A DNA stretch of 64,000 nt. It comes from Lama guanicoe (lineage: Eukaryota). The notes below the pieces were generated by a model, which saw only the letters and a list, made by a program, of their open reading frames with translations, searched no databases and was not told the DNA's origin. The position numbers and the translations under genes are program-made. This document shows, piece by piece, positions 3,953 to 52,859 of the stretch; position 1 is the stretch's first letter; each line of letters starts with the position of its first letter. The stretch spans positions 87,988 to 151,987 of the forward strand of contig MU053588.1 of assembly GCA_013239625.1 (NCBI GenBank). The letters run 5' to 3'.

Positions 3953-5859
3953 CAATTAAAAGACTGTTTCAGCATTTCACCCTTTTATTAAGCTAATGAT
4001 CAAATCTTATTTTCCTTTCATTTGTGATTTCGTCCTGGTCCATCTTAATCACCAGTACTTTGACTTTAATTTCAGTGAAGAGCAGTTGCTAAAAGTAGCT
4101 TTTTGGTTTTGTCATTGTTATTGTGGTATTAGGTTTATTGAATGGTTCTACCAGGATTTTATAAGGCACAGGTTCGCGAAGTCAAACATGCCATGCCTAA
4201 AAAATACAGAACAAAGTAAAAAGATTCTTAGAACACGATAACTTCCAGAACCAGTTTCTTTTCCTTCTGTGATTCATCTTTTTTTCCCTAGCCTTACTGA
4301 GATATAATTGTGTAAGTTTAAGGTGTTCAATCCCCTGATTTGATACATGTACATATTGCAAAATGATTACCACATTAGGGTTAGTTAACATCTCCATCAC
4401 TTCATGTAATTATCTTGTGTGTGGGGGGGGAGAACATTATTTTTAAGGATTTTCAAACACTCTCAAGGTTTACCCCTTCAGCAAAATCTTTTACAGTATC
4501 AGTTCAGATACTTACTCAGTAAGCTCTTTGTTTCCTGACCACAGGCCAAGGAACATCCATCCTAGCTGCCATGAGGTCAGAACAGATTTCCAGAAACCAG
4601 GCTCACACTTGGGATGCTGTTACAGATGGATACGTCATTACATTTTCCAGAAAGAGCCTTAAAGGAAGCATTAGGAGAAATATGCATTAAATCCTTGGCA
4701 AAAGCAAGAGAAGCCACATCTTTAATAACATTTTATTTTACAGAAGTTTAACGCTTAATCCTTTCAAAGCACTTTCATTAATGTGAGGAACAATACAAAA
4801 AGGGGGAGGGAGGTTTCCAAAAGAGTTCTGAGGTAGGCTTTGGCCCTGAGGAACAGGAGGGAACTGGCTGCTCATCAGATGGGGTATGTCCTATGGGTGA
4901 AGTGTGTTCCCACTGTGCAGGGTTGCAGCCTCAAATCCTTAACTCTCCCACTGCCTTCCTCTGCACTTTACAAGCCTCAGCACCAACTCCGTTTAAGCCT
5001 CCTAATCGTAGACACACCTGGTGTCTCCAATCTACAGCTCCCGGGCGTCTTTATAGCTATGATATCCCCATATGTCCAAATATGACCATCAAAGACCACT
5101 AGTCAGTGACTACAAAGGTCACTGATTCGTTCTGATTGCAGAATAGTGAATAACACAGATCCCAGATGGGGAACCCACACTGATCTCCAATGATATCCCA
5201 ATGACTGGAGATCAATCAGTGATTCCCATTGTCCCACCTCCCCTGAAAATTATGACAGTCTCAGTCACTGATACCACCCTCCTTGATCCGTCTGTTCCAC
5301 ATTCCCTATCTACAAAAGTCCAGTCACTGATAACCTCAGATCCCCCATCGATGAGCCAAAGGAAGTCTCAATCACTATTAGCCTAAAAGCATTTCTCCAA
5401 ACATTGATCCTCATTGACCACCCTCATCACTGAACCTCAGAGTTTCCACAATCACCAGTTCTAGGTACCCAAACGTAATTTAGAACTTCCGATCACTGAC
5501 TCCCTCAGTATTCTGATCACCGAGCCGCAACGCCATTCAAATCAGTGTCTTCGAAGAAACCCACCTGGCCTCAGACCCCGTAAGACCATTAAAAACTGAC
5601 CCCCACGCACTCTTGTCAATCAAGAACTCTCATTTATTGATTCCCGCATAACTCCCAACCCATTTTCTTCAGACACTGCCACTGACTCCCACAAATCCGC
5701 CACCACAGACTCCCCCACGGGGCTCAGACGCCCAATCACTTAACCGTCCAGTCCCCTCAGTCTCTGACCCTTACAGGCAACCATGACTGACCCAGTCGGG
5801 CCACCATAGTCGTCTGCTCACTATTACCCGGGTCCCGATTTTTGACTGTTTCTCACAGG

Positions 5860-6540
5860 GACCTTTCTCATTTTCCCTGCACAAGCGCCCATTACCTGAA
5901 ATGGGCTGTCGTACCCCGCCGCCTCACCACAGTACAAGCTCTTCTCTCTTCCCATCCCGAGTGACCGTGCGCAGACTCAGTCGCGACTTGGAGGCTGGCT
6001 GCCGCCCCCTGGCAACCTCCCAGAGAACGGGATTCTGGGTTCCGGAACGTTAATGGCAGGTATGATGGCCGCGCCCGCTTGTCAGCCGCTTGCTGGGGGC
6101 GGCCATGATTACGCCTGTGCCGTGCAGCCGATGATTCGGCCCTTTGTTAGGCGATTGGGCCATTTTAGAACGGGGAGAAGCAAGTGTTCCTGAGTCCCTA
6201 AACACAGACGTCACTGCTGCTTTTCGCATCTCAGGAGCCCATACCTCCTCTGACCAGCAGAGCGGCTCCCTGACCCGGCAGCTGAGCTTTCTGTGTCTCC
6301 AGCAGCGCAAGCAGTGAGGTAAGATGGCCGCGTACGTTCGTACCGCTTCTTACGGGCAACCAGCGCGGCCATCTCCCCCGAGGAACTCCCCTCCCGTAAA
6401 GCAAGGTAAAACTTTTTCCTGGCGTGGGAGAACGGCGAAGAAGAGAAGCTCTTCTCTCGGGGAGCCTGAGGCCCGGGAGGAAGAGGCGGGACTTCACCCA
6501 GTGGGCGGAGCTGCAAGAGTGGGCCAGTAGGAGGATCTTG
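5860..6540. promoter_or_regulatory. CpG-island promoter, likely driving a minus-strand gene that runs off the left edge; possibly bidirectional
   Basis: High CpG density; several YY1-like motifs (aagatggccg 6321-6330, gccatttt ~6160, ggccatct ~6367); CRE-like gacgtca ~6207; minus-strand donor TCAG|gtaatg (exon end 5896); plus-strand GAG|gtaaga at ~6318. Confidence 0.7.
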
Positions 6541-6599
6541 AAAAGAGTATGTTGAAAGTGGGAACTTTGTCTCAGGTGGCTTGACCCTGTTGACTTTAA

Positions 6600-7045
6600 A
6601 AATAAAACAGCCAACTTATGGGACCAAAAAATGAATTTATTCCTAAATAGCAGAGACTCACAATTCGGGACAAGAAGTCACAGCAAAAACCATGGACAAG
6701 TCCAAGAAACAAAGAGGAACTGTTATTTTACAGAGAAAAAGGAGGTAGTTGGGAGGGGTTGTTTTGAAGCAAAGTATGTTGCAGAAAAGTGAAAGATCAG
6801 AGTGAAGACGGCTTCTCACTGGCTGAGTTGCTGGGGTAGTGGATTTCCCGTGGGAGATGCAATGTACATCTCTTCTTGTTGGGGTCTGTGATTGATGATT
6901 TTTTCCTGTTGATTCTTCTGTCGGGGTCTCTAATTGACAGTTCTTCCTGAAACACCTGGAGTGGTACTGCCTGAGATCTCCCTTTTCTGGCCTCCCTACT
7001 CCATTTGAGTGAGATTTTCCTTTATTACTTTTCATGCTCCAGAAG
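6600..7045 (-). mobile_element. ERV LTR-like remnant (family not determined)
   Basis: tttatt poly(A) signal near the left end and an overall LTR-like composition; recognised by recall only. Confidence 0.4.
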
Positions 7046-7574
7046 CCCACCTGAAATAAGGGTGTGAGTGCAAGCAGTTTATTTGGGAGGTAGGGGATGG
7101 GTCAGTGAGACGGGAGGGATGGAAACCAACAGAGAGTGCTTCCATAAGCAGATTACCCCTGTGAGTAATGGGGGTTCAGTCCTGTGGGGAACTCTGATAG
7201 ACTGTGTGAAAACCACCTCCAAGTTTTCCCAGTCAAGGGCTGATGAAGCTGAGATATTTATGTTATCTCTGGTTCCTCACTGTTGTGGGCTACTGCAGGG
7301 GCCTTAAAGCTCTAGCACTTTCAGCCTGCCTCATGGGCAGGTCTCAGGCAGAGCCTGCAGGCGCTCAGAAAGAAGCCAGCCATCAGCATATGGGCATGGT
7401 GAGTGCCTAGGCAAAGTGGGGTACCAACAGCATTCACCACAGTCCTGTTTTTAATAACCATCCACGCAGTGCTCTGCACATCACAGGCATCATTTTGGAA
7501 CACCTCTAGAAATGATTGCCTTTTCCTATGAAAATAGCTCTCTAAATAAACAATTCTGTTTGGTGATCATACCA

Positions 7575-12545: not shown

Positions 12546-13631
12546 TGAACTAGAACAAATAGTCCTAAAATTTATATGCAACCACAAAAGACCCAGAATT
12601 ACCAAAGCAATCCTGAGGAAAAAGAACAAAGCTGGAGGCATAACCCTCCCAGACTTCAGACAATACTATAGAGCTACAGTAGTCAAAACAGTATGGTATT
12701 GGCACAAAAAAACAGACATATGGATCAATGGAACAGAGTAGAGAGTCCAGAAATAAACCCAAGCACTTATGGTCAACTAATCTTCGACAAAGGAGGCAAG
12801 AATACAATGGAGAAAAGATAGTCTCTTCAGCAAGTGGTGTTGGGAAAGCTGGACAGCAGCATGTAAGTCAATGAAGCTAGAACACTCCCTCATACCATAC
12901 ACAAAAATAAACTCAAAATGGCTTAAAGACTTAAACATAAAACAGGACACCATAAATCTCCTGGAAGAGAACATAGGCAAAGCATTCTCTGATGTAAATT
13001 GTAGCAGTGTTTTCTTAGGTCAGTCTCCCAAGGCAAAAGAAATAAAAGCAAAAATAAACAAATGGGACCTAATCAAACTTAGAAGATTTTGCATAGCAAG
13101 GAAAACCGTAAACAAAACAAAAAGACAACCAACGGAATGGGAGAAAATATTTGCAAATGATGTGACTGACAGAGGCTTAATTTCCAAAATATGCAAACAG
13201 CTCAATATAATTAAAAAAAAAAACACTCTATCAAAAAAATAAGCAGGAGACCTAAATAGACATTTCTCCAAGGAAGACAGATGAATAACAGGCACATGGA
13301 AAGATGCTTATCGTTGCTAATTATTAGAGAAATGCCGTTCAAAACTACAGTGAGGTACTACCTCACACCAGTCAAATGGCCGTCATCAAAAAGTCTACAA
13401 ATAATAAAGGCTGTAGAGAAAATAATAAAAGGAAGCCCTCCTACACTGTTGGTGGGAATGCAAATTGGCACAGCCACTACTGAGAACAGTATGGAGGTTC
13501 CTTAAAAAACTAAAAACAGAGTTACCATATGATGTGGCAATCCCTTTCCTGGGCATATATCCAGAAAAGACAAAAACTCTAATTCGAAAAGATACACTCA
13601 CCCCAAAATTTATAGAAGCACTATTTACAGT
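12546..13631 (+). mobile_element. L1 ORF2 C-terminal fragment (relatively young, broken ORFs)
   Basis: Peptides [20 protein letters not shown], [38 protein letters not shown]. Confidence 0.95.
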
Positions 13632-16590
13632 ATCCTTCCACCTGTCTGCTGGACCACGGGAAGACACAGGCCACTGGCCCTTAATAGAGCACAAGACACA
13701 GCCTTCACCTGCGTCTGCCAACCGCCAAATGGCGCTCGGGCTCCCCTACAACCCAGGTTACCTTCCAGTGGCAACTGTGCTTGTGATTATCAAGCTAGCT
13801 GCCCTCTGCATCGCCCAGGAGCAGTGGGAGGGTGGGTTTCAACTCTGGCAAACTGGGTTGTTAGATGAGAAGAGGGAGAGGATACTAGGAAGATGATGGG
13901 AGGTAGGAAGGTGAGCCAGACTTTCTCTCCTCCGGTTACCAATAACCCATATCTCTGAATATGTACACCATCTTTGACACTGCTGCAGCGGCAGTAGCAG
14001 CTGAAGTGGCGAGACACAAAGTAGACTCAAATCCAGATCTAGGTGGATGGTAATGGATTCAACTGGGGGTGGGGAGAGGGGGGATGAAATCTGGTGTGGT
14101 GGGCGGCGATGAAGATCCCCAAATCCCCATTCACAACAAGGGTCATGTCGCCTGAAAATCTGTTGACCTTGAGAGTGGGTCCTATGCTAGTGGGCAGAGG
14201 AAGCCCATGCCCTATGCCACACGGGGTGGGGGACGCTGCCCCTCCCAGTGCCTCCCTGGATTCTGTTGAAAGCCCCTTCTCTCTGTCATTCTTCCTCCCA
14301 GCCCCCCAACTTCTCTCCCTCACTCTAATTCCGCTTGGTAATCCTGGCCTGGCTTTCTTACTCTTGGGAGCCCCAACAATCCATCCATCCATCGATCCAT
14401 CCACTTGTGCGTTTATCCATCCGTCCATCCTTCCATCTATGCGCTGGACCACAAGAAAACACAGGCCACAGACCCTTTATAGAGCACTGGACACAGTCTT
14501 GGCCTAGGCCAGTCAATTGCCGAGAGGCACTCCCTTTGCATCAGAACCTAGTCGACCTGTCGCATAGCAACCTGCTGTGTTGTGCTCAGGTCCCGCGCAG
14601 TAGCAGTTGGAAGGCGCTCTTCAACTCTACCAGTCTGGGTAGTCTGAGGCGAGAGGGCCCAGGGAACAGAGTGGAGTTGATGAGAGGTAGGTAGGGTGCA
14701 TCAGTCTTCCTCTTCCCAAGTTACCGACATCCCAGATCTCTCTGGATGTCACCATCTTTAATGCCGCCTGCACTGACACCACCACTGTCACAATGGCAGC
14801 TGGACCTGGTGGCCAGACGCTCTGTAGGCTCAAATTCAGATCTGGGTTGGTGGGAATGCTGTCAAATGGGCAGAAGTGGGGACGTCGGGGGCGGGTCATG
14901 AAATCTGGTGCAGAGGACGGTGAAGAAAATCCCTAGTCCCAGCTTGAAGTGATGGTCCCTGTCGCCTGAAAATCCATTGACTCCTGAGAGTGGTACCTCC
15001 CCTAGACATGGGCAGAGGAGGCCCATGCCCTGGGGCCACAAGAGGTGGGGGGTGCCTGCTTCTCCCAGGAACTTCCAGGAATCTGTTGAAAGCCCCTACT
15101 CCCAGCCATTCTTCCTCCCCTGCCCTACAACATCTCTTCCCCACCCCCCTTAATCTTGGCTTGGTAAGCCTGGCCTGGCAGGGAGCCTCAACAATCCATC
15201 TATTCATCCATCCATCTTTCCATCCATCCATCCATCCATTTATCCCTCCATCTATCCGCTGGACAACTAGAAGACACAGGCCACAGGCCCTTAATAGTGC
15301 ATTGGGCACAGCCTTCGCCTAACCCTGCCAACCACCAAACTGCACCCGGTTCTGCCAAAGCCTAGCCGACAACGTATCGCACAGCAACTGGGCTTGTCAC
15401 TGTGAAGCCAGTTGCCAGCTCGCGCGCAGTTAGTGAGAGGTCTTCAACTCTGGGAAGCTGGGTTTGGGGGAAGGGGCAGCGGGGAGAAGAAGACAGAGGG
15501 GAAGTGCTGGGAGGTAGGGTGGTGGCTGGACTTGGTGGTGAGATGCTCTGTGGACACAAACCCAGATTGGGGTGTGAGGTTATGGTGTCAAATGGGAGGC
15601 AGGGGAATAAAATCTGGTGCGATGAAGATCCCTAGTTCCTGCTCTAAGTTATGGTCTCTGTCGCCCGAAAATTCATTGACCCTTGAGAGCTGCACCTCCC
15701 CTACACAAGGGCAGAAAAGGCCCAGGCCCTGGCGCCACACGGGCCACACAGGCGCGGTCTCTGCCTCTTCCAGTGCCCTCCGGGAGTCAGCTGAAAGCGC
15801 CTTCCCCCAGCGGTTCTTCCTCCCGCGCCCACCAGCCTCTCTCCCTACCTCCTTTAATCCTGCTTGGCAAACCTGGCCTGGCCGGGCTTTCCTCTACTTT
15901 CGGGAGCCCAACAATCCAATTTTCCAGTCATCCATCCATTGACCCATCCATTTATCCATCCGTCTTTTCGCTGGACCTCTGGAAGCCACGCCACAGGCCC
16001 TTTCAAAGAGTGTGGGACTCAGCTTTCACCCGCGCCTTCCAACCGCTAGCATCCTGGCTCCAGCAGTGCTTAGTCCTCCGCTTGCGCAGCTGGAGGGTGG
16101 GGTCAACTCCAGCGCAGTGGGTTTTCAGGGAGGTAGAGGGAGAGGGCAGAGGGAGATGGTGGGAGGTAGAGAGGGTGCGCCAGTCTTCCTCTCTTCAGGT
16201 TACCGATGTCCCAGATCTCTGCGGCAGTGGCTAGACCTAGTGGCGAGATGCAGACACTGCCAGGTGCCTCTGTGGACATAAATCCGGATCGTGATGAGTG
16301 GGAATTGTGTCAAACGGGAGGAGAAAGGGGATGAAATCCGGTGAGGCGGGCAGTGATGAAGATCTCTCAATATCTACTGGAAGTGATAGTTGTATCGTTG
16401 GAAAATCCATTGACTCCTGAGAGCGGTACCTCCCCTGGATGTGGGCAGCAGAGGCCCATGCCCTATGCCACACGGGGACCCACATTGGGTATGGTCCCTG
16501 CCTCTCCCAGTGCCTTCCAGAAATCTGTTCAAAGTCCCTTCTCACCGTTTTCCTCAGCTCCCCAACCATTCTCCCCCCTCCCTTCACCTC
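13632..16590. repeat. Degenerate GC-rich tandem array, about 4 units of 700-820 bp
   Basis: Ordered recurring motifs: cacaggccac..ccctt (~13665, 14460, 15275, 15990); gaaatc(t/c)ggtg-like (~14085, 14900, 15610, 16333); gaaaat...ttgac (~14154, 14968, 15667, 16401); (ccat)n tracts (~14380, 15195, 15930). Confidence 0.88.
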
Positions 16591-18024
16591 TACCATCACT
16601 ATCACCCAAAGGACATTCCCTGGAGTATCTGGCCAAGATGTTGAGGGTGCTGCCTCCTCTGTGTGGGAGAACCTTCCTCCTTGGACAGAGGTGATGATGC
16701 TTCTGCAAAGTGTCCCAGGACTCAGGGCTCTTTCCTCAGTAGTTGTCCCACTGACAGATTCCTGTCCCTCTTTGTCTTGTCCCCCCCATGGCTGGCCTCC
16801 CTTTGACAAAGCAGGGAAGCCATGTGGTGCTTCTCTCCTTCTGCCCTACATCTGTGGCCTCAGAGAGAGGGCCAGGGGAGGGCTTGTTCTAAATTCCTGC
16901 TGCCCATGGTGGCTAGTCTCCTGATGCCTTTCTCCTGCCTTACTCATGTATTTCTCCCCAGTCAAGTGCCCTAGGGAGCAGGAAATCCGGTCTTCATCCT
17001 ACATGAAGGTCCTGAGACATGAGTTTGACTTGCTGATGGAAGAGCCTGCCCAGTGGGCTCCCCATTCCCTAGGTGGCCTGCCTGGTGTGGTCATATTCAT
17101 TGGGCAAGTCTTTCTTGGCCTCCTATCCTGACAAGGATTTTCCTCCTCCTGGAGGGAAACATCCAAGCCATGATATAAGGCCATGTTTTGTTGAGGAAGA
17201 AATGAGGCCTGCATTGAACCAGCCAGCTAAGAGATGCCCTTGATTCTCTCCAGACAGGAGTTGGCAAGCAGGGCCCAGTCGGAGCCCCTTATTTCTGTCT
17301 AGAAGTACCCTGGGCATCATTTGGAGAGGTGGGCACATGAGGTAATCGGCTGTGTCTGAAGGCCTGGTGTTCAGGGCAAGAGGCAGCAGTATCTGGAGGA
17401 AAGACATATGTCCAATTCTGTAGTAAGAATTAAGCATGTCTGGGGGTTGGCCTGGCTGTGTTGATTTCCAGGCAAGGCATCTTAGTCTTTACTGTGCCTT
17501 AAGACAGACAGAAGAGCTTGGTAAATTGCCAGGATTCCAGACTTTGAAGCCAGCTGTTTCTGAATGTTGGCTCAGACATATACCACTGGTGGGCACTTGG
17601 GTCACTGACTAAAATTCTGTGTCAAGCCATTGTCACCTCTGCAGTGGTGATTATCAGGAAAGGGCTCTAATGGTTCTTGAAGGAACTAAAGTGAAGAAGA
17701 AGCAGTTTATTCCAGGCCCCGGTGATTCTCACTATCAGTTTTTTCAAAGGTTTTCCAGGCTCTGTCCCCTCCCATATCCCAGGTCCTGGTGGTGGCAGCA
17801 CCCACCTCCTGGTACACCTGCTAAAACTCATCAGACCAAAAGGGAAAAGCAGTACCTTTCATTTGATGTGGATCATGCCACAAGGCAGTTCATTGATAGG
17901 TACAGGGGAGGTACAAACACACATTCATCATAGACACAGAGGGAAATGCTTAGTCTGGACGGGAATGAAATCTCATCGATGAAGTTAAAAACGAAACAGA
18001 ACTAACCAAGGAAATGTAAATGGG

Positions 18025-19025
18025 GTATGTCCAAATTCAGATCAGGGTGGGTGGGAAAGGTGTCAAATCGGGGGGAGGGGTGGGTGATGAAATCTAGCGA
18101 GGTGGGGGGAATGAAGGTCCCCAAGACCCCACTAAAGTAATGGTTGTGTGGACCGAAAATCCATGGACGGTGAGACCAGTACCCCTCCAAGACAGCCCCA
18201 GGGACACCCTTAACACCATCCGGAGGAGAGACACTGTTGCTAGGCTTCTGAACCTGTTTAGTCAACCTGACCCGGCTTTCCTCCACTTTCAGGAGCCCTA
18301 AATATCCATCTGTCCATCCTTCTATCCTTCTATCCATATATCTGTCCTCCCATTCATTCACTGGACTGGACCCCCCGGAGAAACTTCCACAGCTTTCGCC
18401 TGCCCCTGGCCTCCGCGGGAGGGCGATCCCGCACCCCCAGCGCCTGGAGGACTCCAGCTTAATCACCCTAGTGATCACTGTGATGCGCACAGCGCTCTTT
18501 GCCTGCACATGCGCAGTTCAAGGCCAGGTGCGACCCTAGGACGCTGGGTGAAGTGGTGGTGCTGGGGAGAGAACAGGGCGGATGTGTGGGTAGGGAGGAC
18601 CCTGTGCCCACCTTCTTCTACTCAGATTACCGAGATCTCACACATCTGAATCGCTGCTGCTCCTGCCACCAACACCAGCATGTCCGCCACCCTGGTGGAG
18701 GCTGGACTTGGTGACTAAACACAGACACACCGGGCACCTCTGTGGACTCATTTTTGGATCAGGGTGGATGCGAATTCTGTCACATGGAGCGGGGAGGGCT
18801 GGAATATGGTGAATTGACGGTGATTAATTTCCCCGAGTCCCCGCTGGAAATGACGGTATCCACTGAAAATCTGTTTTCCCTGGTACCAGTACCTCCCCTA
18901 GTTGTGGACAGAGGAGGCCCCTGCCTCGGCGCCATATTCCAGGGGACAGCTCTCTGCCTGTCTCAGCACCTTCCAGGAGATTGTTCAACGTTCCCCCTCC
19001 TGGCCTGTTCACCACCCCCACCACC
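18025..19025. repeat. Further ~1.5 degenerate units of the same GC-rich tandem array
   Basis: caaattcagatc..gggt.ggtgggaa.g.tgtcaaat at ~18032 matches ~14831; gatgaaatctagcg ~18088; gaaaatccatggac ~18155; ccat/ctat tract ~18305; gaaaatctgtt ~18865. Confidence 0.8.
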
Positions 19026-20069
19026 TCCTGGGCATGGCCGGAGGGTCAGGCCGTGGAGGGCACTACTTCCTGCCAGGTGGGGCACACCGTTTTCCTGGCA
19101 CCTTCCTCCTGGGACCAGGACAATAGGAATATAATGAAGAGGAACACATGCAGGAGGTACAGAAATGTAAGTCTGACATATCCATCCTAGAGAGAATGGA
19201 AAGTGGAGAGGAAAAACCGTGCTTCAGAGGCAGCTTTGAGGCTCCTTGGACCAACAATGACCCCAAGCCATGCTTTGAACCCCAAAAAGAACCCCAACAA
19301 TTGTCATGAATGAAAACCATAACCAGGTCCACAAGAGGAAATGCTCTGAAGGCCAACCCAAGATCCGAGAGGCTGGGGAGGGGGGCAGTGTGAGGAGAAA
19401 AAGCAGTAAAGGAATGATTTCAAAGGAGCAAACCTCATCCCAAGCAGCCCTGAAGTTTAACATCTCAGTGAGAACAGTTGAAGCCAGATTAAGTGTGCAT
19501 GAACAAGAACATGCAGGTAAACTGGAATCGTAAATCTACCACTGAAAAGCGGAAAGGCAATTGCAGATGAAATACTCAGAATGATGAATTAGAAGGAGAA
19601 GTACAGTCTAGGTGTAGTACATATATCTCATGATGTAGATTGTCCTGTGATTTGGAATGAAAGTCAAGGTACGTTATATGTAGCAAGAATGTCAACGCAG
19701 ACACCTGCCTAGACGTTCAGAAATATATGCTGAGAAGGAAAACTGATGTAACTGATTCCACAGAAGCTTGGCATTGACATTCTTTCATTAGGAGACCTTC
19801 TTCTTAATTATGCCAAATCAACACCATTTGAGGTCATGAAAGACAAGAAGATACTGAAATTTTAGAGGCTGGAGGCAGCTGAGGAGAAATTCCTTCCTAC
19901 TTCTATGCTAATCTAGGAGCAGAGAACAAGACATTAGTGGAAAAACAGTGGATTTGCCATAAGATCTGCAGTTGAGTTAAGAAGGTTGTCTCAAAGTTAC
20001 TTTCCTGTACCTGATGTTTGCATTATGGTTAGGTAAGATTTGGGGTTTTTTTTCCCCCCTGACAATAGA

Positions 20070-28726: not shown

Positions 28727-31173
28727 TCAAGTGTGACTACTCCGATGCACATTGAGCACTGATTTCTGAACAAAGCCTTTCCCACAGACTACACACTTAT
28801 AGGGTTTGTCTCCAGTGTGCGTTGTCTGGTGTTTATTCAAGTTCGACCTGTCAGTGAAGGCCTTCCCACACTCAGCACACACATAAGGCTTCTCCCCTGT
28901 GTGAATTCGCTGATGCACTTGGAGTTGTGATTTCTTAGTGAAAGATTTGCCACAGTCACTGCATTCATAAGGTTTCTCTCCAGTATGAATTCTATGATGT
29001 ATAATCAGCTCTGACTTTTGTCTGAAGGTCTTCCCACATTCAGAGCAGATGTAGGGCTTTTCTCCAGTATGAGTTTTCTGGTGTTTACTGAGATTTGACC
29101 TGCCACTAAAGGCTTTCCCACACACAGCACACACATATGGTTTTTCTCCTGTGTGAATTGGTTGATGCACCAGGAGCTGAGATTTAGAGGTGAAGGATTT
29201 CCCACAATCACTGCATTCATAAGGTTTCTCTCCAGTGTGGATCCTCTGGTGAGTAATGAAGTTTGACTTCCGGATGAAGGCTCTTCCACACTCAGTGCAC
29301 ACGTAGGGTTTCTCTCCTGTATGAATTTTCTGATGCACAATAAGTATTGATTTCTGGTTGAAGGCTTTTCCACATTCATGACATTCATACTGTCTCTCTC
29401 CAGTGTGAATTTTCTGGTGTATATTGAGGTGTGATTTCTGGGTGAAGGCTTTTCCACAGGTACTACATTCATAAGGTTTCTCCCCAGTATGAATTCTCTG
29501 ATGTGTAATCAAGTCTGACCTCTGTGTGAAGGCCTTGCCACATTTAGAACATACATAGGACTTCTCTCCTGTATGAGTTTTCTGATGTGTAATGAGATTT
29601 GACCTGTTGGTGAATGCCTTCCCACACTTAGTGCACATATAGGGTTTCTCTCCTGTGTGAATACGTTTGTGCACGTGGAGTTGTGACTTGGAAGTAAAGG
29701 ATTTCCCACAGTGACCACATTTATAAGGTTTCTCTCCGGTATGAATTATTTGATGGGCGATCAAGTGTGCCTTCTGGATGAAGGCTAGCCCACATTTCAT
29801 GCACACATATGACTTTTCTCCTGTATGAATTCTTTGATGCACTGTGAGTGCTGACTTCTGAGTAAAGGCTTTTCCACAATCACCACATTCATAAGGTTTT
29901 TCTCCGGTGTGAATTCTCTGATGTATAATCAACTCTGACCTGTAGGTAAAGGCTTTACCACATTCATTACATATTGAAGATTTCTCCCTAATTTGAACTT
30001 TCTTATGTGTATTGAGGTTGGAACTACTGTTGAAAAGCTTCCCATATTCGTTGCATATAAAGGGTCTCATTCTTGTGTGAGTTCGTTGATGTACCTGAAG
30101 TTGTGACTTAGAAATGAAGGACTTCCCACAGTTACTGCACTCATATGGTTTTTCTCCAGTATGAATTCTTCGGTGTGCAATCAAGTGTGTCTTCTGGATG
30201 AAGGCCTGTCCACATATGATACATATATAGGATCTCTCACCTGTATGAATTTTCTGATGCATCTTGAGTGTGGACTTTTGTGTGAATGCTTTGCCACAAT
30301 CACTGCATTCATGGTGTCTCTCTCCGGTATGAATTTTCTGATGTATACTAAGATCTGAGTTATAAGAGAAGCCTTTCCCACATTCACTGCATTCATAGAG
30401 TTTTTCTCCAGTATGAATTCTCTGATGCCTGAAAAGAGAAGATACCTGGAAAAATGCTTTCCCACAGTCACCACACTTATAGGGCTTCTCTCTAGTATGG
30501 GTCCTCTGATGTGTAATGAATTCTGGTTTCTGTACAAAAGCCTTCCCACAGTCAATACATACATAGAGTTTCTCTCCTGTATGAACTTTCAGATGTACCT
30601 TGAGTTGTGACTTCTGGGTAAAGATGTTTCCAAATTCAGCACATTCGTAAGACTTTTCCCCAATGTGAATTTTCTGGTGTTGAGAGGATGCCTGCTTATA
30701 GCTGAGGGTTTTTCCACATTGATTATGGTCCCACAATTTCTCCCCTGCTGGAGTACACTGACGGCCAGTAGAGGAAGAAATTTTACCATGTTCAGTAATC
30801 TTATTAATGTTCCTTGACCCACTGTTTCTATTATGACTGTGTAAATCTAAATTATGCTTCAAAGCATTTCCAAATAAGTCACACTGATGGGGTCTTCTTG
30901 GGGAAGGAATGTTTTGGCTCCCATGGATTATTTTTCTAATGTCCTTATATTCATAATCTCTCTTTATAGTCAGTGTTTTCTTGATGAAAGCAACATCTCT
31001 TAAAGATTTCTTTTCTCTTTGCTGATAGCTCTCTATCTGGTCAGCAATCTGCCAAAATTCTTCTAGAATAAAATACAACAAAATGTCACGTGTAGCATCA
31101 CTTTCCCTCTCAATGTAGAAAGAAGCTTTTTCAGAAATTCTCTGCTGTGAAGTTTGAAACTCAAACTCTCCTT
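28727..31173 (-). CDS. ZNF585A: Zinc-finger (last coding) exon of a ZNF585A/B-like KRAB-ZNF: 21 intact C2H2 fingers plus degenerate fingers. Two in-frame candidate acceptor positions: 31173/31170 (long) or 30744 (short, human-like)
   Basis: ORF 28727..31081 with tandem CxxC...HxxxH/TGEKPY units. [10 protein letters not shown]...[10 protein letters not shown]...[14 protein letters not shown]...KGFVQKSV matches human ZNF585A as recalled. The frame stays open to 31173, bounded by an in-frame TGA at a pyrimidine-rich acceptor. Stop TGA at 28727-28729. Confidence 0.93.
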
Positions 31174-32546: not shown

Positions 32547-35500
32547 CAGTTGTCCCTTGAACAACAGGGGACTGTTGAACTGCATGGGTCCACTTATCTG
32601 TGGACTCTTTTCAATAAATATATTTACTGAAAATACTGGAAAATCTTTTGGAGATTTGTGAGAATTTAAAAATACAGACAAACTGCATAGCCTAGAAATA
32701 TCAAAAAAATTTAAGAAAAAGAGATGTCATGAATGCATAAAATACATGTAGATACTAGTCTATTTTATCACTTACTACCATGGAATATACACAAATCTAT
32801 TATAAAAAGTTAAAATTTATCAAAACTCACCCCCCCAAAAACTTACAGACCCTACATGGCACCATTCACAGTGGAGAAATGTAAACAAATGTAAAGATGC
32901 TGTATTAAATCCTAACTACATAAAAGTAACTGTGGTGAGTACTGTACTACCGTAATTTTGTAGCCACCTCCTACTCTACTGCAGTGAGCTCAAGTGCTGT
33001 GAGTATCCACTTAAAATACCCTCATCATGTGAGCAGCCCCTCTCTCTAGCAAATTGCATACAACAGTAAAAAGGGATCTCTCCAGGTTCTCATGTACTTT
33101 TTGTTCAATGCAATATGATAAACCCAGAATAACATCACGGGACCCATACTGGTGCCACTAGTGATGCTGGAAGTGCTCCCAAGAGCAGAGAAGCCATGAC
33201 ATTACAAGAGAAATTTGAATTTTTGCTCATCCCATAGATTGAGGTCTGCAGCTGTGGTTGCTGGCCATTTCAAGATAAATGAGTCCAGCATAAGGACTAT
33301 TGTTAAAAAAAAAAAAAAAAGAAAGAAAAGGAAATTCATGAACCATCACTGCAGCTACAGCAGCAGGCATGAAAACCTTGCATTTTTTGAGAAATATTTT
33401 ATCTTGTACTAAAAATGTAGTTTTTATGTGGGTGCAGGATTGCTATAAGAAAAGCATAACCAGAGATTCTTAACATGATTTGAGAAAAGTGAAGTCATTA
33501 TAACTTAAAGTGAAAGGTAACCATAAGTTTATTCTCTATGTCTGTGAATCTGTTTCTTTTTGTAGGTAAGTTCACTTGTGAACTTATGATTATCGGGGGT
33601 AAAGGGGTTGGGAAGGGATAAATTGGGAATTTGAAAACTGCACCTCTTGGGGAGTGATGGAAATGTTAGCTAATTTTGACTGTGGTGGTGGTTTCATAGG
33701 TGTATACATTTACCAAAATTCATCAAATTGTACAACTGAAATATGTGTAGTTTACTGTACAGGAACCATACCACAAAAAAGGTGCTTAAAAAAAAGCAAA
33801 AGGAAGGTGACGGATCTAATGCTAGAGAATTTAATGCCAGTAGAGGATGGTTTCATAATTTTAGAAAGAGGTTCAACCTAAAAAACATCAAGATAATAGG
33901 AGAAGCAGCTCTGCTGACCAGAAGGCAGCAGATGAGTTCCTAGACGCCATTAAGAAAATCACTGAGGAGAATGGATATCTGCCTGAACAGGTTTTTAATG
34001 CAGATGAAAATGCTCTATTCCGGAAAAAAAAAAGCCACAAAAGACATTTATTTCTAAAGAAGAGAAGTGAGCACCAGGATTTAAGGCAGGAACTTAAATC
34101 CTAACTAACTCTACTGTTTTTGTGTAAATGCAGTAGGGCTAATGATCAGGACTGCTTTATCTGTCTGTAAAGCGGCTAACCCCAAGCCTTGAAGGGAAAA
34201 GATAAACACCAGCTGCCAGTCTTGGTTACAAAACAAGAAGGCCTGGATAACAAGAACCTTTTTAGATTGGTTCCACTGAGGCTTTGTCCTTGAAGTCACA
34301 AAGTACCTTGCCAGTAAGGGAATGTCTTTAAAGTTCTTTTGTATTTGGACAATGCCACTGGCCACCCAGAACCCTCACCAAAGCTGTCAAATGGTCTACT
34401 TGCCCCCAAACACAACATCTCTAATTCAGCCCCTAGATCACAAGGGCCATTAAGGCTTATTACACATGGTACTCTATGGTAAGGACTGTCAACACTATGG
34501 AAGAGAGCCTCGAGAGAGAACAACATGACAAACTAAAAGACTTACACCACTGAAGATGCCACCGTTGTTAGAGAAAATGCTGTGAAAGCCAACAAACCTG
34601 AAACAAATTCCTGCTGGAGAAACTGTGTCCAGATGTTGTGCACGATTTCATAGGATTTACAACAAAGCTAATGAGGGAAACTATGAAAGACACTGTGAAT
34701 AAGGAAAAAAAGGTGGGTGAAGGGTTTTAAGATATGGATCTTGGAAAAATTCAAGAGCTAACAGACGTCACACCAGAGGAAGTAACAGAAGACGGCTTGA
34801 TGAAGATGAGCGCTTCTGAATCAGCGCCAGGTGATGAGGAAGAAGACACAGAAGCAGCAGTGCCAGAAAACAAACTGACGTTAGATAATCCGGCAGAAAG
34901 GTTCTGATTATTTAAGACTCCTTCTGACTTCTTTTACGACACGGGCTTTTCTGTGATATGGGCACTGAAACTGAAGCAAATGGTGGAAGAAGGATTGGTA
35001 CCACATAGAAACATTTTTAGAGAAATGAAAAATCAAGAAAATGGTCAGACAGAAATTACAGTGTTTTTCTGTAAAGTTACACCAGTGGGCCTGCCTCGTC
35101 TGCTCCTCTTCCACCTCCACCTCCTCCACTTCTTCCATCTCTGCCATCCCTGAGACAGTAAGACCAACGCCTCCTCTTCCTCCTCCTCCTCAGCTTACTC
35201 AACGTGAGGATGACGAGGATGAAGACCTTTATGATGCTCCACTGCCGTTTGATGAGTAGTAAATAATCACCGTGCTGTACAGTTAATAAACTTACCTGTT
35301 GTGTGTGCGTGTGTCTTCCTGTGAAAATCTAGTGACTGTATGGCAGCGAGAATGGGATGAGATGTTTTTTATCATCATCATCATGATCATCAAGGATTCA
35401 TCATGTAGAACACCGGGTGCAACATTTGTATTAAAGTCGACAGCTTATCCTTACATAGGCATAAGGTGAGTGATATTTAATATAAAATTAATAATGTGTT

Positions 35501-36224
35501 TGTTTTCTTGTTTTGTAACTTCACTTTCAAAGAACTGCATTACCATATGGTATGCCTCTCTTGTAACTGGAGAAATTGCATATCAGCCTGTCATCACAGA
35601 TAGTGATTTTTTTTTAATGTAACTGTTTCCAATACTGTATTATGAATCTGACTGTAATACCATATTCCATAAAAATTGTACAGCACTTCATCTATTAGTG
35701 TATAGGCTCAGCTACCGTGTAGCCATCACACTGCTGCTTCTTCATCACCAATAAGTGAATTGTTCATTATACCTATAATACAAATTTCTTTTCCACATTA
35801 TCTTTTCATTTTTGATGTCTAGTGTTGTAATACATACAAATTTCTACAGTGTTTTGCATCACTTAAGACAATATTGATGTAGGTACTGTAAGAAGACAAT
35901 TCACCTTGTAAATAGATGATGTAAACTATGGTACCGATAAATACAGTATAGTACTGTAAATGTATTTTCTCTTCCTTATGATTTTCTTAACAACATTTTC
36001 TGTTCTCTAGCTTACTTTATTGCAAGAATAAAGTATATAATACATGTAACATACAAAATATGTATTAACCGACTGTTTATGTTATTGGTAAAGCTTCCAG
36101 TCAACAGCAGGCTATTAGCCGTTAAGTGTTTGGGGAGTCAAAAGTTATACATGGATTTTCAACTGTGCAGGGGGTTGGTGCCTCTAACACACCAACAACA
36201 CCTGTGTTGTTCAAGGGTCAACTG
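32547..36224 (+). mobile_element. Near full-length Tigger2-family (Tc1/mariner pogo-like) DNA transposon, Tigger2f-sized, with a decayed transposase
   Basis: TIRs cagttgtcccttgaacaaca ... tgttgttcaagggtcaactg flanked by TA on both sides (32545-46, 36225-26). Transposase remnants include FKINESSIRTIVK, EFNASRGWFHNFRKRFNLKNIKI and an acidic C-terminus, with many stops and frameshifts. Confidence 0.9.
33517..33795 (+). mobile_element. Short 5'-inverted L1 3'-end insertion nested in the Tigger2 element
   Basis: L1 3'UTR sequence in minus orientation (33517-33580) abuts the same region in plus orientation; A-rich tail; imperfect TSD aaagtgaaagg/aaagcaaaagg. Confidence 0.65.
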
Positions 36225-36351: not shown

Positions 36352-36534
<183 letters not shown>

Positions 36535-46090: not shown

Positions 46091-47799
46091 ACATATTTAA
46101 CAAAAACCTGTGATAGTCATGGTAAAATACGGGGAAAATCATGAGATATGGAGTAATGTTATTGCAGATTTGAATTGCAGCTCTGCTACTTTTCGGTTAT
46201 GAGAAAATGAAGAAGCTATTTCAGCTTCAGTTTCAAAAATGAGGATGAAAGTGCCAACCTCAAAAAGTTATGAACATTAAATGAGCTGGTGCTTGCAAAG
46301 CACTCATCACCTCCCTGGAATGCAAGCAGCATGCAATAAATATCAGCCACTACCACGCACTATTGGATATTAAAATTTAATATAAGAATATAAAAAGCAA
46401 GTAAAGCAATAGACTAGACAATACTGATTTATATACGTGACCAAAGTGACATTCAACTCAGTGTACACAAGACATTCTTCGCATAGATGGCGTTGACATA
46501 ATTGGCTATCCATCTGGAAGAAAACAAACTAGATCCCCAACCTACACTACACATTAGACTGAATTCCAACAGGAACAAACATTTTAAGTTTATGTAATTA
46601 AAAAATCTCAAAGAATATTAAAATAAAATTTAGAGGATACATTTGTATAACACTGGTGGGGTAGGAGGGACCTTATTACACATGAGAGAAAACCCAGAAA
46701 CTACAAAAGAAAAAACAAATATTTCTTAATTCTATGTTAAAATACACCTTAAAAATAAAAATCAAGATATACATATAAAAGATTTTTTCAATATGTGATG
46801 ATAGGTTATCCCTAATGTTAAAAAATCTAGCAAACAGAAAAAAAAATGCCCAGAAAAAAAAAAAGGATATGAAAATTCAAAGAAAAGGCAATTTAGATGG
46901 CAATTAAAGAAAAAGATGCTAACTTTATTAACAGGAAAATGCATTAAGGCAACTAGGTATAATTTTCCCTCAGAATTGTAAAAGCTTTTTAAAAAAATGG
47001 TGGAAAGCATTTGGGAAATTGAACTCTCTTATAAATTGTTGGTGGAAGCTTAAATTGCTATAATATCTTTTGAATTATTCAGTCGTATCTATTATTAAAA
47101 ATACACATAACCGTTCCTAATAATAGTTTCAAATATATAAAGCAAAAACAGATAGAAGGAAGGGCAAGTGAACAAATCACCTTTCCAGTGTGAGTGTATC
47201 TTTATAATGAAACAGACAAAACAATCTGTGTAATGTATTTCTGAAACAATACAATACAATTAATAGAGAACACATTGTTTTTACGTAATAGATAATGACA
47301 TTTAGGAAAACAGACCGTGAACTGGGCCATAAAGCAATTTTTACACTTGATCATCACCCAGAGGTATTTGAAATAGAGAATGCACTTCTAAATAATTCAT
47401 GCGTCATAGAAAAAAAAAACTGAAATTCAAAAAAAGACAAAAACAAAACCCCAACACTCAGACTTGAGCAGTAAAGAAAATGCTACATACCTAAGCTTGT
47501 GAATATTTATAAAGCAAGCTCGTCACAGACCCGAGATCCCCATGCTGACGCCACAGACCCTGTCACTGACCAGAGACCCTCATCACTGGACCCTCAAATC
47601 CCAACTGCTCATCTCAAAGATCCTCATTGCCCAGAGAGAACCCTATCACTGACCCCTCTGACACCCATCAACCGACGCCACAGACCCCGCCCCTCATGCT
47701 GAACCCCAAAACCATCATCACTAACTCCACGGACAACCCTTCCATCACTGACCCCACAGATTCCTAATCAAGATCAGCCAAAATCACCTCAGAGACCTC

Positions 47800-48320
47800 T
47801 CGGAATTAAAACGTGAAGATCCTCTTGAAACAAACGGCAAAAACGACTCCGAAGGCCACTTCCGCTTCCTCTAGCACCGCCCCTAGAGGACTGTTGGTAC
47901 TGCGCATGCTCTGAGTTACCTTGGAAGCGGCGTTCTGCCAGCAGTCAACCCGGCGAAGATCCGTTGCTAGGGACCTTGTGCAGTGTCCGTAAGAGGCGCT
48001 GTCGGGCAGAGAACATGGCTGCGCCCAACGGCGCTTCGGCTTGCGGGGCGCCATTTTGGGAAGCGTGTCCATTCCGTACACTGGGGAAATAGGCCTCCTG
48101 CCGGTTTTCATACAGGTAGGCAGGGGTTACCACACAGAATACGGGAGTGTGGTCTTGGCTAGGTAGGCTTCCGGGAGGAGGAAGCTATTGGAGATGCGGT
48201 CCGGAGCTTCATGTTATGTAATAGAAAACCTACAATGCCCCTCGGGATACAGCACAGTGCGGAGGGCAATTGCCTGCTTGGAGAAACCACCCGGGAAGTA
48301 GGGAGCCAGGGAGGAAAAAT
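47800..48320 (-). promoter_or_regulatory. CpG-rich promoter and probable non-coding first exon of the ZNF585A-like gene
   Basis: Local CpG enrichment; YY1-type AAAATGGCG (cgccatttt 48049-48057); NRF1-like tgcgcatgc at 47901; ZNF143-like ctacaatgccc at ~48230; minus-strand donor CAAG|gtaact with the exon ending at 47920. Confidence 0.7.
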
Positions 48321-50563
48321 CACCAAAGGAGAAAGACAGATGCCTTATATTCCACGGCTGGATCCTGGGAGAAATTACCGGGGGATGATCAGGATGTCAA
48401 GTCATAATGGTACAATCCATTTTTTGGAGGAAGTACTCAGGGAGAGTGGGGAGAGGTTAGAATGGAGTCCGCTCCTGGGCCGAAAACATTCAGCAAGACA
48501 GAGAAATGTCAGAACGAGCAATTCGCTGCAGGAAGGATGGTGCAGTCTTTAACACGAGAAATGAAACCTTAAGTCCAGTCTCTGACTCCTCCCTTAGCTT
48601 CTCCTATATGGAAATTGTGGAGCAGCTAACACTCTCCCCACCCCCAGTTCCCCACTCGGGGGGGGGGGGCTATGAGTGGGAGTTGTAAAGACAAGTCTTT
48701 TCATCTCGTGGGCTCCTAGATATTCTTCAAAACCCAGCTTAAATGTTGCCTCTTCCAGAATGTTCTTCCACCTGATGATGGTAGGAGTTTCTATGTCCTG
48801 CTTAAGGTGTTGTTTCAGTCCCAGGAGATGGGGAAGATGTTTTGAGGGAACTGGGCCTGGGCTCTGATGTGGACATCCTGGGTATCTTCAGGCCAGTTGT
48901 GTCCCCTTCTGGGATTCAGCTTAAAAATAGGACAAGTTAGAGGGTTGGACTCTGCTTATGCCAGGTTCTCTTTCTTTTCCCAAAGCCTGATTTAAGGAAA
49001 ACCCTGTGAAAGTCCATTAGTAAACATACATTTTTATCAGAGGCCTAAGAATTACTGTTAATTTTGTTGGTAATGTGGTTATGTTAAAAAAAAAAAGTTT
49101 ATCTTTTAGAGATTCATATGGAAGTATTTATGGGTGAAATATTAGCTTTAAAAACTTCACTGGAGAGGGGTAGATGAATGAAACAAGAGTAACAGAATGA
49201 TGATAAATGTTGAAGCAGGGGATGATGGGTACATGGAGTTTAGTATAACGTTCTCTTCTTTAGTATTTGAATGAAACTTTCACAGTAAAATTTAACTAGA
49301 CAGGAAAGGCGTTTTAAAAACATTTTCAAAGAAATATTATGAAGAAGAAAGCAGGTGTGTTGACAGAATTAAATAATACAGCCATAAGCAAACAATGAAT
49401 AAAGATATTCCATATTTTAAAAAGATGCAGCTACCATGGGCATACAACACTTCTAACATTTATTTCACAATATAGTTCTGTAATATGGGAAAAAGTGATA
49501 GAACAGGGACATTTTGAGGAAGCTACAATCACAGTAGCATATTAACACATCTCTCAGAAACAGATCAAACAGAAGAAAGGTGAGGATTAGGCTGTACTGG
49601 AATAATATAAATAGTTTGCTTGGTATATCACTCATTTACATTGAAAAAAATTTTTAACCAGAGAATGAACATTTTTTCCCCAAACACAGAACACTCATAA
49701 AAATTCTCCACAAAGTAGGCCAAAAAAGAAATTACAAAGCTCCTAGATTTATATCACATAAGTCATATTCTCAGACAACATCAAAATGAAAATAGAAAGC
49801 AACAACAGGCAGATAATGAAATGTTTCAAATGCCTGGGCATTAAAATATACGTACGTGAGTAATTCTTCGGTTAAGGACAGCATAACAAGGGATATTACA
49901 AATTATTTAGAATGAAGAGGGAAATAATAGTACAATGTATTGAAAATCTAAGGGATGGGCCATGTCTGTTTAACTCACTGCTGTTTAATCAGCTTATAGC
50001 ACAATGTCTACCATATAACAGGTGTTCAATTAAGTAACTATTGAATGATGAAGGGTTAGGAAAAGGAATTAGAATGAAGGTACAGGAAAATATCAGGAAG
50101 TTAAGAAAATAGGGAAAGCAGTTAAGTTTCATAATCATCATTATTTTAAAATAATTTTTATGATATTCTATGCATTGTGGCAAAACTATATAGTTAAGCT
50201 TCATGTGATTCTGAACATATAGATTTGTGGATGTGGGAGGCTAGCACTCTCCAGTGATGCAAAGAGTGTCTTAGTGACTCCTGAGCCAGAAACTCTGTAA
50301 TAAAAACAACACTGAATGTTATTTGATGGGGACAAGGGTATGGTTGTTCAAAGTGGAATACCCTAGGGAAAGTTCAAAGGACTGACTGAGTTTGGTGTGA
50401 GCAGATGATGCAGAGGGCTTTCATGTCAAGAGTAGACACTGTGTAACATACCACTTGGTTGGCATGTGATGATGCTGGCCAAGGATGAGAAACTAGATAA
50501 CTTCACCAAAGGCTATAGCCATTGACAGTCTGAAGTAAAAGCAAGCTCCAGATAGCATGACAG

Positions 50564-50697: not shown

Positions 50698-51419
50698 ATA
50701 GCATGACAGAACAAAATGTAAAGTGCTGTAGTATGAAAATCAAATGAACTCTATCAAAGAGATTGGATTTCAAGTCTCAGCTCTACTATTTGCAAGGTTT
50801 GTGCCCTTTGAAAAATTTGTCTGTAAGTTCCATTTCCTCATCTGTAAAATGATGGTAATATCTGACATATATATGTTTAATTGCTAAAATTAAGAATAAT
50901 TCAGGACAAGATTGGCAAAATATTGCTAACTGTTGAAGCTGGATGATAGATGCATGTAAATTTATTGTATTGTTTGCTTTGCTTTCATGAATGTTTGAAA
51001 TTTTTTATAATAAAAAGAAAAGATAATAATTTGGGCAAAGTCCTTAGGAAAAAATTAAGTGGTTAGCAAATGGTAATTGTTATAAATAGGAAATTATCTT
51101 CACAAAAATCATAAAAGACAAATGATTTTGAAGACATCAAAGTAGAGCTGGGCTGAGAAGCACAAACCAAAAACTGAACGTTATTCTACTATCCTTCTCC
51201 AAAAGTCAAATAAAATTAATAGTACCAGAACATGTGCCCCATATATCATCGTTTTCCAGATGAAGAAAGTGTGGTAACTCATCCAGTTTCACCTATGGTC
51301 TTACATATTGGGGCCACTATAAGAGTCACCACTACAATGCTCAACAAACACACTGCTTGACGCTTCCAATAACCAGCCCCCATCAGCCCCATTCCAGGCT
51401 CTAGGATTTCTCTCCTTCA

Positions 51420-52260
51420 GTTTCTTTGGTGCGGTTTGGGTCTGAGACTCCCAGGTTTCCGCTGCCAGAGCAGCACAGGTCCTGCGCCAGGCTAATCCGC
51501 GGAGAAATGAATTATGTCAAAAATGGCGGTGTAGTCAGTCAGTCTGGAACATTCTCAGAGAGAGTTACAATTCCTAAAAGACTCTTGGGCGCCACTCTGT
51601 CCTTCACTGTGTCCAAGCTCAGGGCAGAAGGCCAACACAATCTTGGGCGGGCGCCTCAACCATCCCAACTCTAGACTACATTTCCCAGAAGTTCGGGCGG
51701 CTTCGGTGCGACTCCCGCGACCTGTTTCTATTTCTCAGGGAACACATGGCTCCCTGGGATTGGCTAGACACATGGAGGCAGCTTGTCTCTAGGGCGTAGG
51801 GGGCTGCCCCTGGATCTTGAAGACTACTGGCAGCGATTCCGAGAGGGGAGAAGAGATGTGGCTCGGCCTAGGCTGTGCTCTAACAGAAAATCCGAGGGTT
51901 GGCAGCCATCTTGTCCAAGCGAATCTGGCTCCGGACTACATTTCCCAGAGGCCCCGGCGGATTTAGGGCCGCCCCTTCACTCGCCTGCAGGACCCTCGGC
52001 CTCCAGGGAAGGGGGAGTGCAAGGTGAGCGGCCTAGGTCTTGAGGGCTCGGCTAGGTTCCGGAGGTGCATCCGCGAGGGTCTGAAGGGACTGTCTAGGCG
52101 GGTCCGGAGTCTCGGGGCCATATTATTTGGCCGGTCTGGGGGGTGGGCCGAAGTGTGGGATTCCACATGTGCGTTTGTGACCCTTGTGACTGTGTGGCGG
52201 TGTGTGCGGGTGTGTTTGTATGTCCCTGTGGTGGGTGTATCATTGTGACTGTGTGCGCGG
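51420..52260 (+). promoter_or_regulatory. CpG-island promoter and first exon of a plus-strand gene, probably a KRAB-ZNF (ZNF383-like by human synteny, unverified)
   Basis: Two ACTACATTTCCCAGA ZNF143/THAP11-type motifs (51675-51691, 51935-51952); YY1-type aaaatggcgg ~51520; strong donor CAAG|gtgagc at 52023/52024 followed by a GT-rich intron start. Confidence 0.78.
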
Positions 52261-52859
52261 AGCTCTGTGTGTAGGTATGGTTGTGTCCCCGTGGTAGGAC
52301 TGTGATTTTGCTTGTCTGTTTAACTTTGTGTCATTGTGTGTACTGGGGAGGGGAGTGTAGGGAATCTGATTATGTGGCTATGACTTTGTTATCTGAGGGC
52401 TGCGTGTGTGTGATTGATTGTGGTTCTATGAATGTTAGCAGTACTAAGTGTACTGGACGTCTGTGACTGTGAGGATGTGTGAGTGTGAACTTGTAACTTT
52501 TTGTGGCACTGTGTGTGTGGTTGGAGGGTGCCTATAATTGTGCCAGGCTGATTGTGTGTCCCAGTGGTTGATATATGACATCAGGACAGATTTTGGTCTT
52601 GGACAGCATTGACTTTTCCCCTTCTAACACCAGGAATGCTCAGGGCAGTCTAAATTCCTCTAAACTCTCTTCATCCGTCCTCTCCATGGGTAATAGGTGT
52701 GGGTCCAGAGTAACCTCGGATCAGTCTGTGCCACCAGAAAGGCCTGGCATTTCATGATTCCTTTCTCCTTTCTCAGCTCTGCTTTTCTCAGAGAGGTCCC
52801 CAGAGGAAGACGGAGGAATGGCTGTTGGCCATGCCGAATACAAGGTGCGCTTGGGTTTC

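Follow-up and report, generated by a model that had tools for sequence, protein, structure and literature searches.

An ancient, decayed tandem array in the guanaco genome, partly transcribed and likely spliced: a possible remnant of a promoter and first-exon module

A stretch of 64,000 nucleotides from the genome of Lama guanicoe (GCA_013239625.1, contig MU053588.1, positions 87,988 to 151,987 of the forward strand; the whole stretch is referred to here as the window) contains at 13,628-19,030 a real, ancient and decayed tandem repeat composed of six colinear units in register, 0.64-0.81 kb in length, one of them (U5) partial. The array is proposed to have arisen when a module that was likely a promoter plus a short first exon was amplified in tandem long ago and then decayed; part of the array is still transcribed and likely spliced, and to this reading a probability of about 0.55 is assigned. 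It was not found described in the literature searched, most subscription journals being outside that scope, and is apparently undescribed. It would represent a very old tandem array common to camelids and whales, probably serving as a distant 5' exon of a neighbouring gene in reproductive tissue, and would illustrate cleanly how a frozen macrosatellite can become gene-start sequence or arise from it. The array also bears on the open question of the origin of the satellite SST1, namely whether that satellite has a non-primate ancestor.

Structure of the array

Self-comparison by BLAST evidenced periodic diagonals across 13,631-19,038, the signal on which an initial annotation, made from the letters alone, had staked its proposal of a six-unit array with a ~1.4-kb interruption. 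Offsets between shared 8-mers peak at 700-800, 1400-1600 and 2200-2250, and the gaaatctggtg-type motif recurs at 14,086, 14,900, 15,609, 16,333, 18,089 and 18,801, that is, at spacings of 814, 709, 724, 1,756 and 712, in agreement with those proposed. In leave-one-out searches with nhmmer, profiles built from five units found the sixth in all six cases (E 2.6e-29 to 1.3e-154), and the strong divergence that had been noticed among the units corresponds to a pairwise identity of 0.57-0.71 when aligned in register. Tandem Repeats Finder, the second check recommended, reported just the (ATCC)n tracts and missed the array period. The unit profile found no further copy in the 64-kb window, the best match outside the array having an E value of 5.8.

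U1 (13,628-14,428; leave-one-out E 1.7e-147), whose left end adjoins an L1 fragment, and U2 (14,429-15,242; E 1.3e-154) are full length. U3 (15,243-15,953) has an internal deletion of ~95 bases and carries a splice donor in use, as indicated by the RNA run X1, and U4 (15,954-16,595), which has no (CCAT)n tail, is the best match of a whale gene model (P0126) according to protein comparison. A non-unit block of 1.4 kb (16,596-18,014) separates U4 from U5 (18,015-18,345; E 2.6e-29), of which just the 3' half is present and which is specifically matched by two proteins from another organism (P0124/P0130). U6 (18,346-19,030; E 4.4e-67) is the most diverged full unit.

The GC content of the units is 0.51-0.59 and their CpG observed/expected ratio 0.26-0.44, compared with 0.08 in the block, 0.17-0.19 in the flanks and 0.59-0.72 in the three CpG islands of the window. 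The units thus retain more CpG than the block between them, and the ratio reaches 0.63 in unit columns 101-200; the 'many CpGs' of the initial annotation hold against the background and do not hold against the islands.

Read on the minus strand, a unit would be laid out as a C-rich stretch, a GCGCA core of NRF1-like type, sequence richer in CpG, a (GGAT)n tract and, ~60 bases further on, a GT donor, an order that corresponds to a promoter followed by a short first exon. The GCGCA core was observed 11 times compared with 3.0 in shuffles, the unit copies not being independent of each other. The ancestral module, common to camelids and whales, would have been GC-rich and ~0.8 kb long, likely a promoter plus a short first exon. 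Tandem promoter duplication that yields alternative promoters has been described, at least in the accessible part of the report (10.64898/2025.12.03.692127). The REF1 elements treated there resemble the array in that a gene start duplicated in tandem long ago gave rise to alternative first exons, located upstream and spliced to common downstream exons; REF1 pairs have tested promoter activity, whereas the array consists of six decayed copies, of which one has a donor in use and none a mapped start.

The block gave no Pfam family in six frames and no usable ESM Atlas match when a coding origin was checked, and neither terminal repeats nor a target-site duplication were found at its ends. A second copy of the interval from U4 to U6 (2,392 bases) is absent from the flanks, which argues against a higher-order unit of 2.4 kb. 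At the right end of the block, 17,950-17,990 looks by eye like the gaaatc/gatgaag motif of the unit, and the unit profile gives it no score. The block also contains an imperfect hairpin of 69 bases at 17,115-17,183 (z -4.0, reached by 1 of 200 shuffles and among the best 2 of 125 windows); this hairpin has no Rfam match, and 7 of its central letters are absent from run X1.

Transcription and splicing

The initial annotation was silent on transcription and splicing of the region, and both turned up here, the latter by decoding of a single run. Nine RNA-labelled runs contain part of the region, and the four that belong to one reproductive-system study have 0.35-0.37 of its words. Contigs of runs X1, X5, X7 and X13 were placed on the window, one run being used from the four-run reproductive study; neither the holes of X13 over 16,600-19,000 nor the low shares found in X6-X12 were counted as evidence. 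In X1 a single contig of 3,280 nucleotides extends across 15,847-19,148 at a depth of 11.9, and there is essentially no cover over 13,816-15,759, leaving the bodies of U1-U3 empty. The transcribed, unspliced 3.3-kb segment (15,849-19,148, minus strand; X1 record 4) comprises U6, U5, the block, U4 and the tail of U3, its strand being taken from GT-AG junctions. It contains 60 ATGs, the longest ATG frame having 119 amino acids, and likely serves as first exon of an RNA that is non-coding or a 5' untranslated region.

Usage of the donor GT at 15,847-15,848 (minus strand, GAG/GTAGGG) is evidenced by branching of the X1 contig: two records of 56 nucleotides leave it, ending at 15,847 with 26 loose letters. 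GT is retained at the donor column in U1, U2 and U3, and the donor of U3 is moderately strong (score 4.1). The loose end is a consensus of two different ends (agreement 0.62) and was decoded assuming alphabetical tie-breaking. One of the 71 AG/GT sites left of the array fits the decoded letters, at 7,050, and the best acceptor pair among 993 minus-strand AG/G sites was 4,657 with 7,050, at a distance of 3 that was reached by 0 of 300 shuffles, the best pair on the other strand having a distance of 6. Both acceptors have proper polypyrimidine tracts.

Two downstream exons are putative: one of which 7,023-7,050 is the start (minus strand, acceptor at 7,050), as read from the decoded mixed loose end, and one at 4,517-4,657 (minus strand, acceptor at 4,657), whose end is predicted from a GT donor. 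The latter has three letters unlike the decoded read and lies in intron 1 of the left-hand gene, as the gene that starts at the CpG island near 6 kb is called here; the right end of that intron is itself a deduced position. The promoter of this gene (5,550-6,550) was recognized by its CpG content and a minus-strand donor at 5,895. Since the decoded ends point to acceptors at 7,050 and 4,657 and the latter is placed in intron 1 of the gene from the 6-kb island, the array is likely spliced as a distant upstream first exon, probably non-coding, of the left-hand gene in reproductive tissue. The present-day RNA would start near 19,148, and perhaps also inside U4, run through U6-U4, exit at the U3 donor and join 7,050 or 4,657.

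The contig end shared by two runs at 19,147-19,148 is a weak hint of a transcription start ~120 bases beyond U6, and the depths of the two branches in X1 (8.7 + 9.2), which exceed the contig mean of 11.9, fit weakly with extra starts near U4. A strong-looking splice acceptor is present on the minus strand at ~19,187, 40 bases past the contig end, and is unused in X1; should it be used in other samples, the 3.3-kb segment would become internal and not a first exon.

Age and relatives outside camelids

Kimura two-parameter distances are 0.37-0.42 among U1-U4 and 0.46-0.67 from those to U5/U6, and the tree of U1-U4 is star-like, with branches of 0.21-0.23 and U6 further out. The window differs from run X1 at 93 of 3,280 letters, so that X1 represents a relative of ~97% identity, and the divergence among the units is 14-21 times that between this relative and the window. 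The copies may have been made by unequal crossing-over, beginning with U5/U6; U1-U4 would have followed in a single later burst, and homogenisation would then have stopped.

One minus-strand frame of the array was compared by phmmer with 1.84 billion proteins, and five proteins were obtained at E <= 0.001, one of them from the same lineage and one low-complexity noise. P0126, a RefSeq predicted model of the right whale Eubalaena glacialis listed under LOC133077666 and LOC133077674, has U4 as its best match (53 bits) and also matches U1, U2 and U6. P0132 matches U6 at 59 bits and P0124 matches U5 at 66 bits (<=20 bits for the other units), while shuffles of the P0126, P0132 and P0124 matches (30 each) peak at 29.6, 28.1 and 25.8 bits. 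P0125, P0131 and P0132, which come from contigs of 1.2 kb, match U6, U2, U3 and U4 and have a stretch in common with the whale protein. For P0124 and P0130 the match is with U5 alone (58%), suggesting that another species has an orthologue of U5 itself. These matches are translations of non-coding DNA and do not constitute evidence for a protein, and none of the unit-matching proteins has a Pfam match. P0123 and P0128 come from contigs of 3,280 and 3,532 nucleotides and are not independent of the RNA evidence; P0127 was dropped as a low-complexity repeat, and so was P0129, which belongs to the cluster of P0124 but is enzyme-like and unrelated.

Because whale and other proteins match the units, the array, as judged from these sequence matches, is not camelid-specific and predates the camelid-whale split, which took place some 60 million years ago. 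Branches near 0.2 suggest, at substitution rates presumed typical, a placement roughly at the early placental radiation. Of the two origins offered by the initial annotation, an undescribed lineage-specific satellite is thus not supported, a right-whale gene model matching the units. The two whale loci listed for P0126 may reflect a recent duplication of the unit family in whales or a doubling in the assembly. In metagenome contigs a scan by motif yielded 20 loci, with no similarity reaching beyond the motif in any of them (one, examined in full, looked bacterial), and viral contigs gave 0 motif matches and no relative of P0132.

Alternative origins and the surrounding locus

Several observations weigh against a promoter and first-exon origin. 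The right end of the RNA contig lies at 19,148 in X1 and 19,147 in X7, runs of two studies, and is ~120 bases outside U6, so no start inside any unit is shown. The U1 and U2 donors are unused in X1, low-depth unspliced pieces that may be DNA or nascent RNA cross the donor in X5 and X7, and the junctions rest on an assumed tie rule and one run, the 4,657 match having three differences. By nhmmer and local alignment the units are unlike the three CpG-island promoters of the window, and MYB, GC-box, ETS, RFX and YY1 cores are not enriched in them. Invariant columns (182 of 475) are not clustered (P 0.76 and 0.17), and U4 differs from X1 at at least 26 of 642 places, compared with 2.8% overall; U4 thus changes no more slowly than the remainder, and together these figures reveal no purifying selection. 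The strand of the protein matches was fixed by design, a single minus-strand frame being the query.

These points give room to a strong rival, which is nevertheless clearly less probable: an ordinary ancient satellite or minisatellite-like array without a promoter origin, decaying neutrally and read through from an unrelated start near 19,150, with the U3 donor being opportunistic. The unclustered conservation, the rate of change of U4, the contig end outside the units in two studies, the lack of likeness to the local promoters and a donor of only moderate strength (4.1) are all consistent with it. Conversely, a passive satellite does not account for a CpG retention that exceeds the values of the block and flanks by a factor of two to five, for a GT kept at the donor column in three units, or for a whale gene model that runs across a unit and has the strand of the camelid RNA (the frame searched being minus-strand by design). 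On balance the promoter and first-exon module is preferred.

The initial annotation had also raised the possibility that the array is an older eutherian form of SST1/NBL2, and its premise, that human 19q13.12 carries SST1 arrays among zinc-finger genes, agrees with the accessible part of PMC3018141, where two arrays of 2.5-kb monomers with 64% GC, more than 99% alike, are described. Extended to its full form, this proposal would make the array a non-primate relative of SST1, the U4-to-U6 interval of 2,392 bases, which has homologous bounds, having been re-amplified in simians as the 2.4-2.5-kb monomer. The resemblance is one of general features: judging from the available portions of the sources, SST1/NBL2/MER22 also forms GC-rich tandem units among KRAB zinc-finger genes, is transcribed and has promoter-like features and few simple repeats per unit (PMC3018141, PMC12657243, PMC6009586, PMC8382927, 10.1101/2021.07.12.451456). 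The KRAB-ZNF setting recalls that of 19q13.12 (PMC3018141), and chromosome 19 has been called the ancestral SST1 site, with promoter- or enhancer-like polymerase peaks in each monomer, in the part of 10.1101/2021.07.12.451456 that is accessible. The equality of the 2,392-base interval with the monomer length is the one suggestive number, and the divergence of the units would make the array old enough to predate primates.

Against this, the array departs from SST1 in monomer length, homogeneity, GC content and range. As far as the accessible text of the same sources goes, SST1 monomers are 2.4-2.5 kb (chromosomes 4 and 19) or 1.4 kb (acrocentric chromosomes), whereas the units found here are of 0.64-0.81 kb; SST1 is more than 99% homogeneous within an array of 14-154 copies, whereas here six copies are 57-71% identical; and SST1 has 62-64% GC with a CpG island of ~400 bases per monomer, whereas the units have 0.51-0.59 and a CpG ratio of 0.26-0.44, a difference that decay could explain in part. 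SST1 is described as primate-specific in the available parts of PMC6009586 and 10.64898/2025.12.22.696095, whereas the array is present in a camelid and matched in a whale. Two published SST1 primers had 0 matches in the array at up to 3 mismatches, and no motif match was found in PMC8582499 or PMC12657243. An alignment made by hand and eye, hence not optimal, of ~385 of the 1,591 characters of a gibbon SST1 consensus gave blocks scoring ~20 where chance gives 30 +/- 3.5 and true unit pieces score 92-206, and these ~385 bases contain no run resembling the 70% unit-to-unit likeness. Colinear SST1 patches seen by eye with the block and U4 were set aside, their hand scores being near 20, below simulated chance. 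The distal human SST1 array, which we take to lie beyond ZNF383, would be on the other side of the ZNF585 pair from the array described here, which is on the opposite side of a gene that is presumably ZNF585-like (gene names and polarity being in part assumed), and the site is probably not that of the distal human array. The human order is ZNF829, ZNF568, ZNF420, ZNF585A, ZNF585B, ZNF383 (PMC5704537).

A relationship with SST1 is therefore considered improbable; what stands of that proposal is the KRAB-ZNF neighbourhood, the presence of SST1 arrays at human 19q13.12 and an array older than camelids, and the link itself is not supported by the four differing features, the primers without matches and the ~385 bases at chance. 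Equally doubtful is a broader scheme in which the KRAB-ZNF cluster would have carried an array of promoter and first-exon cassettes since early placentals that independently re-amplified in different lineages, being frozen in camelids, recently duplicated in whales and the source of SST1 in primates, with the U4-block-U5 interval as monomer. If true, the repeat at the breakpoints of human Robertsonian fusions, SST1, would have arisen as a runaway copy of the start of a host gene instead of deriving from a primate retroelement.

Two other satellites invite comparison. The ZAV macrosatellite next to the KRAB gene ZFP37 is likewise an array rich in GC that lies upstream of a gene, in KRAB surroundings, with testis expression and a proposed regulatory role; it differs in having homogeneous units of 5.3 kb with two CpG islands each and in being absent from mouse, and the accessible part of the source does not describe it as spliced into a neighbour (PMC3018141). 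The alpaca satellites VpaSat01-13 are camelid tandem repeats, some of them GC-rich and interstitial, which differ by forming large homogeneous arrays of 1.8-8.5-kb monomers, according to the available portion of PMC13751797. Four of the 26 primers of that report were tested against the array and scored at chance, and six motifs of the units are absent from the accessible part of its supplement.

Slightly less credible than the SST1 link is the idea that part of a known old transposable element became tandemised to form the unit, for instance a long terminal repeat (LTR) or the 3' end of an L2 with a microsatellite tail. The unit length suits an LTR, several copies exist in other genomes and the ~90 bases that follow every (CCAT)n tract bear a faint resemblance to what we take to be an antisense L2 end; against it stand the absence of dispersed copies in 64 kb and of a conserved poly(A) signal, the lack of Pfam matches in the unit homologues and the block, and the lack of a relative in viral contigs. 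A cluster of small RNAs with one microRNA or snoRNA per unit, suggested by the unit spacing and the hairpin of the block, can be practically discarded, as the 7 Rfam matches at E <= 10 are neither near the gathering score nor repeated per unit, and the units have no short conserved island and no hairpin at a homologous place.

With regard to the surroundings, the left edge of the array adjoins a plus-strand fragment of the end of ORF2 of an element presumed to be an L1 (12,540-13,632; self-BLAST), whose 3' side is cut short where the array begins and whose match to another L1 copy ends at 13,635. Since this piece meets the array at its own 3'-truncated end, a deletion joining both fits better than an insertion of the L1 into the array; the adjacency noted in the initial annotation is real, and the cutting of the array by the L1 is the less fitting part of that claim. 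The KRAB-ZNF neighbourhood it described is supported by Pfam, with 21 C2H2 matches in a zinc-finger exon at 28,727-31,066 and a KRAB match in an exon at 36,379-36,501, both on the minus strand. The gene is presumably ZNF585-like, a name that database searches did not confirm, and its intron contains at ~33,000-36,200 a long, decayed stretch that looks like a DNA transposon, presumably of Tigger type.

On the minus strand at 754-960 the left-hand gene has a predicted exon with an open frame of 69 codons (P0122), for which neither a homologue nor a Pfam match was found, so that the search did not name the gene. The stretch 6,540-7,050, just upstream of the 6-kb island, has by eye an LTR-like look, and the putative exon with acceptor at 7,050 begins there. 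A short interspersed element in the window is presumably of the camelid Vic-1 type, in line with the camelid source. The three CpG-island promoters of the window are located at 5,550-6,550, 47,500-48,400 and 51,400-52,300. In the first of them splice donors face both ways (5,895 on the minus strand; 6,318 and 6,405 on the plus strand), and the islands near 6 and 48 kb have similar C-rich repeats in their first introns.

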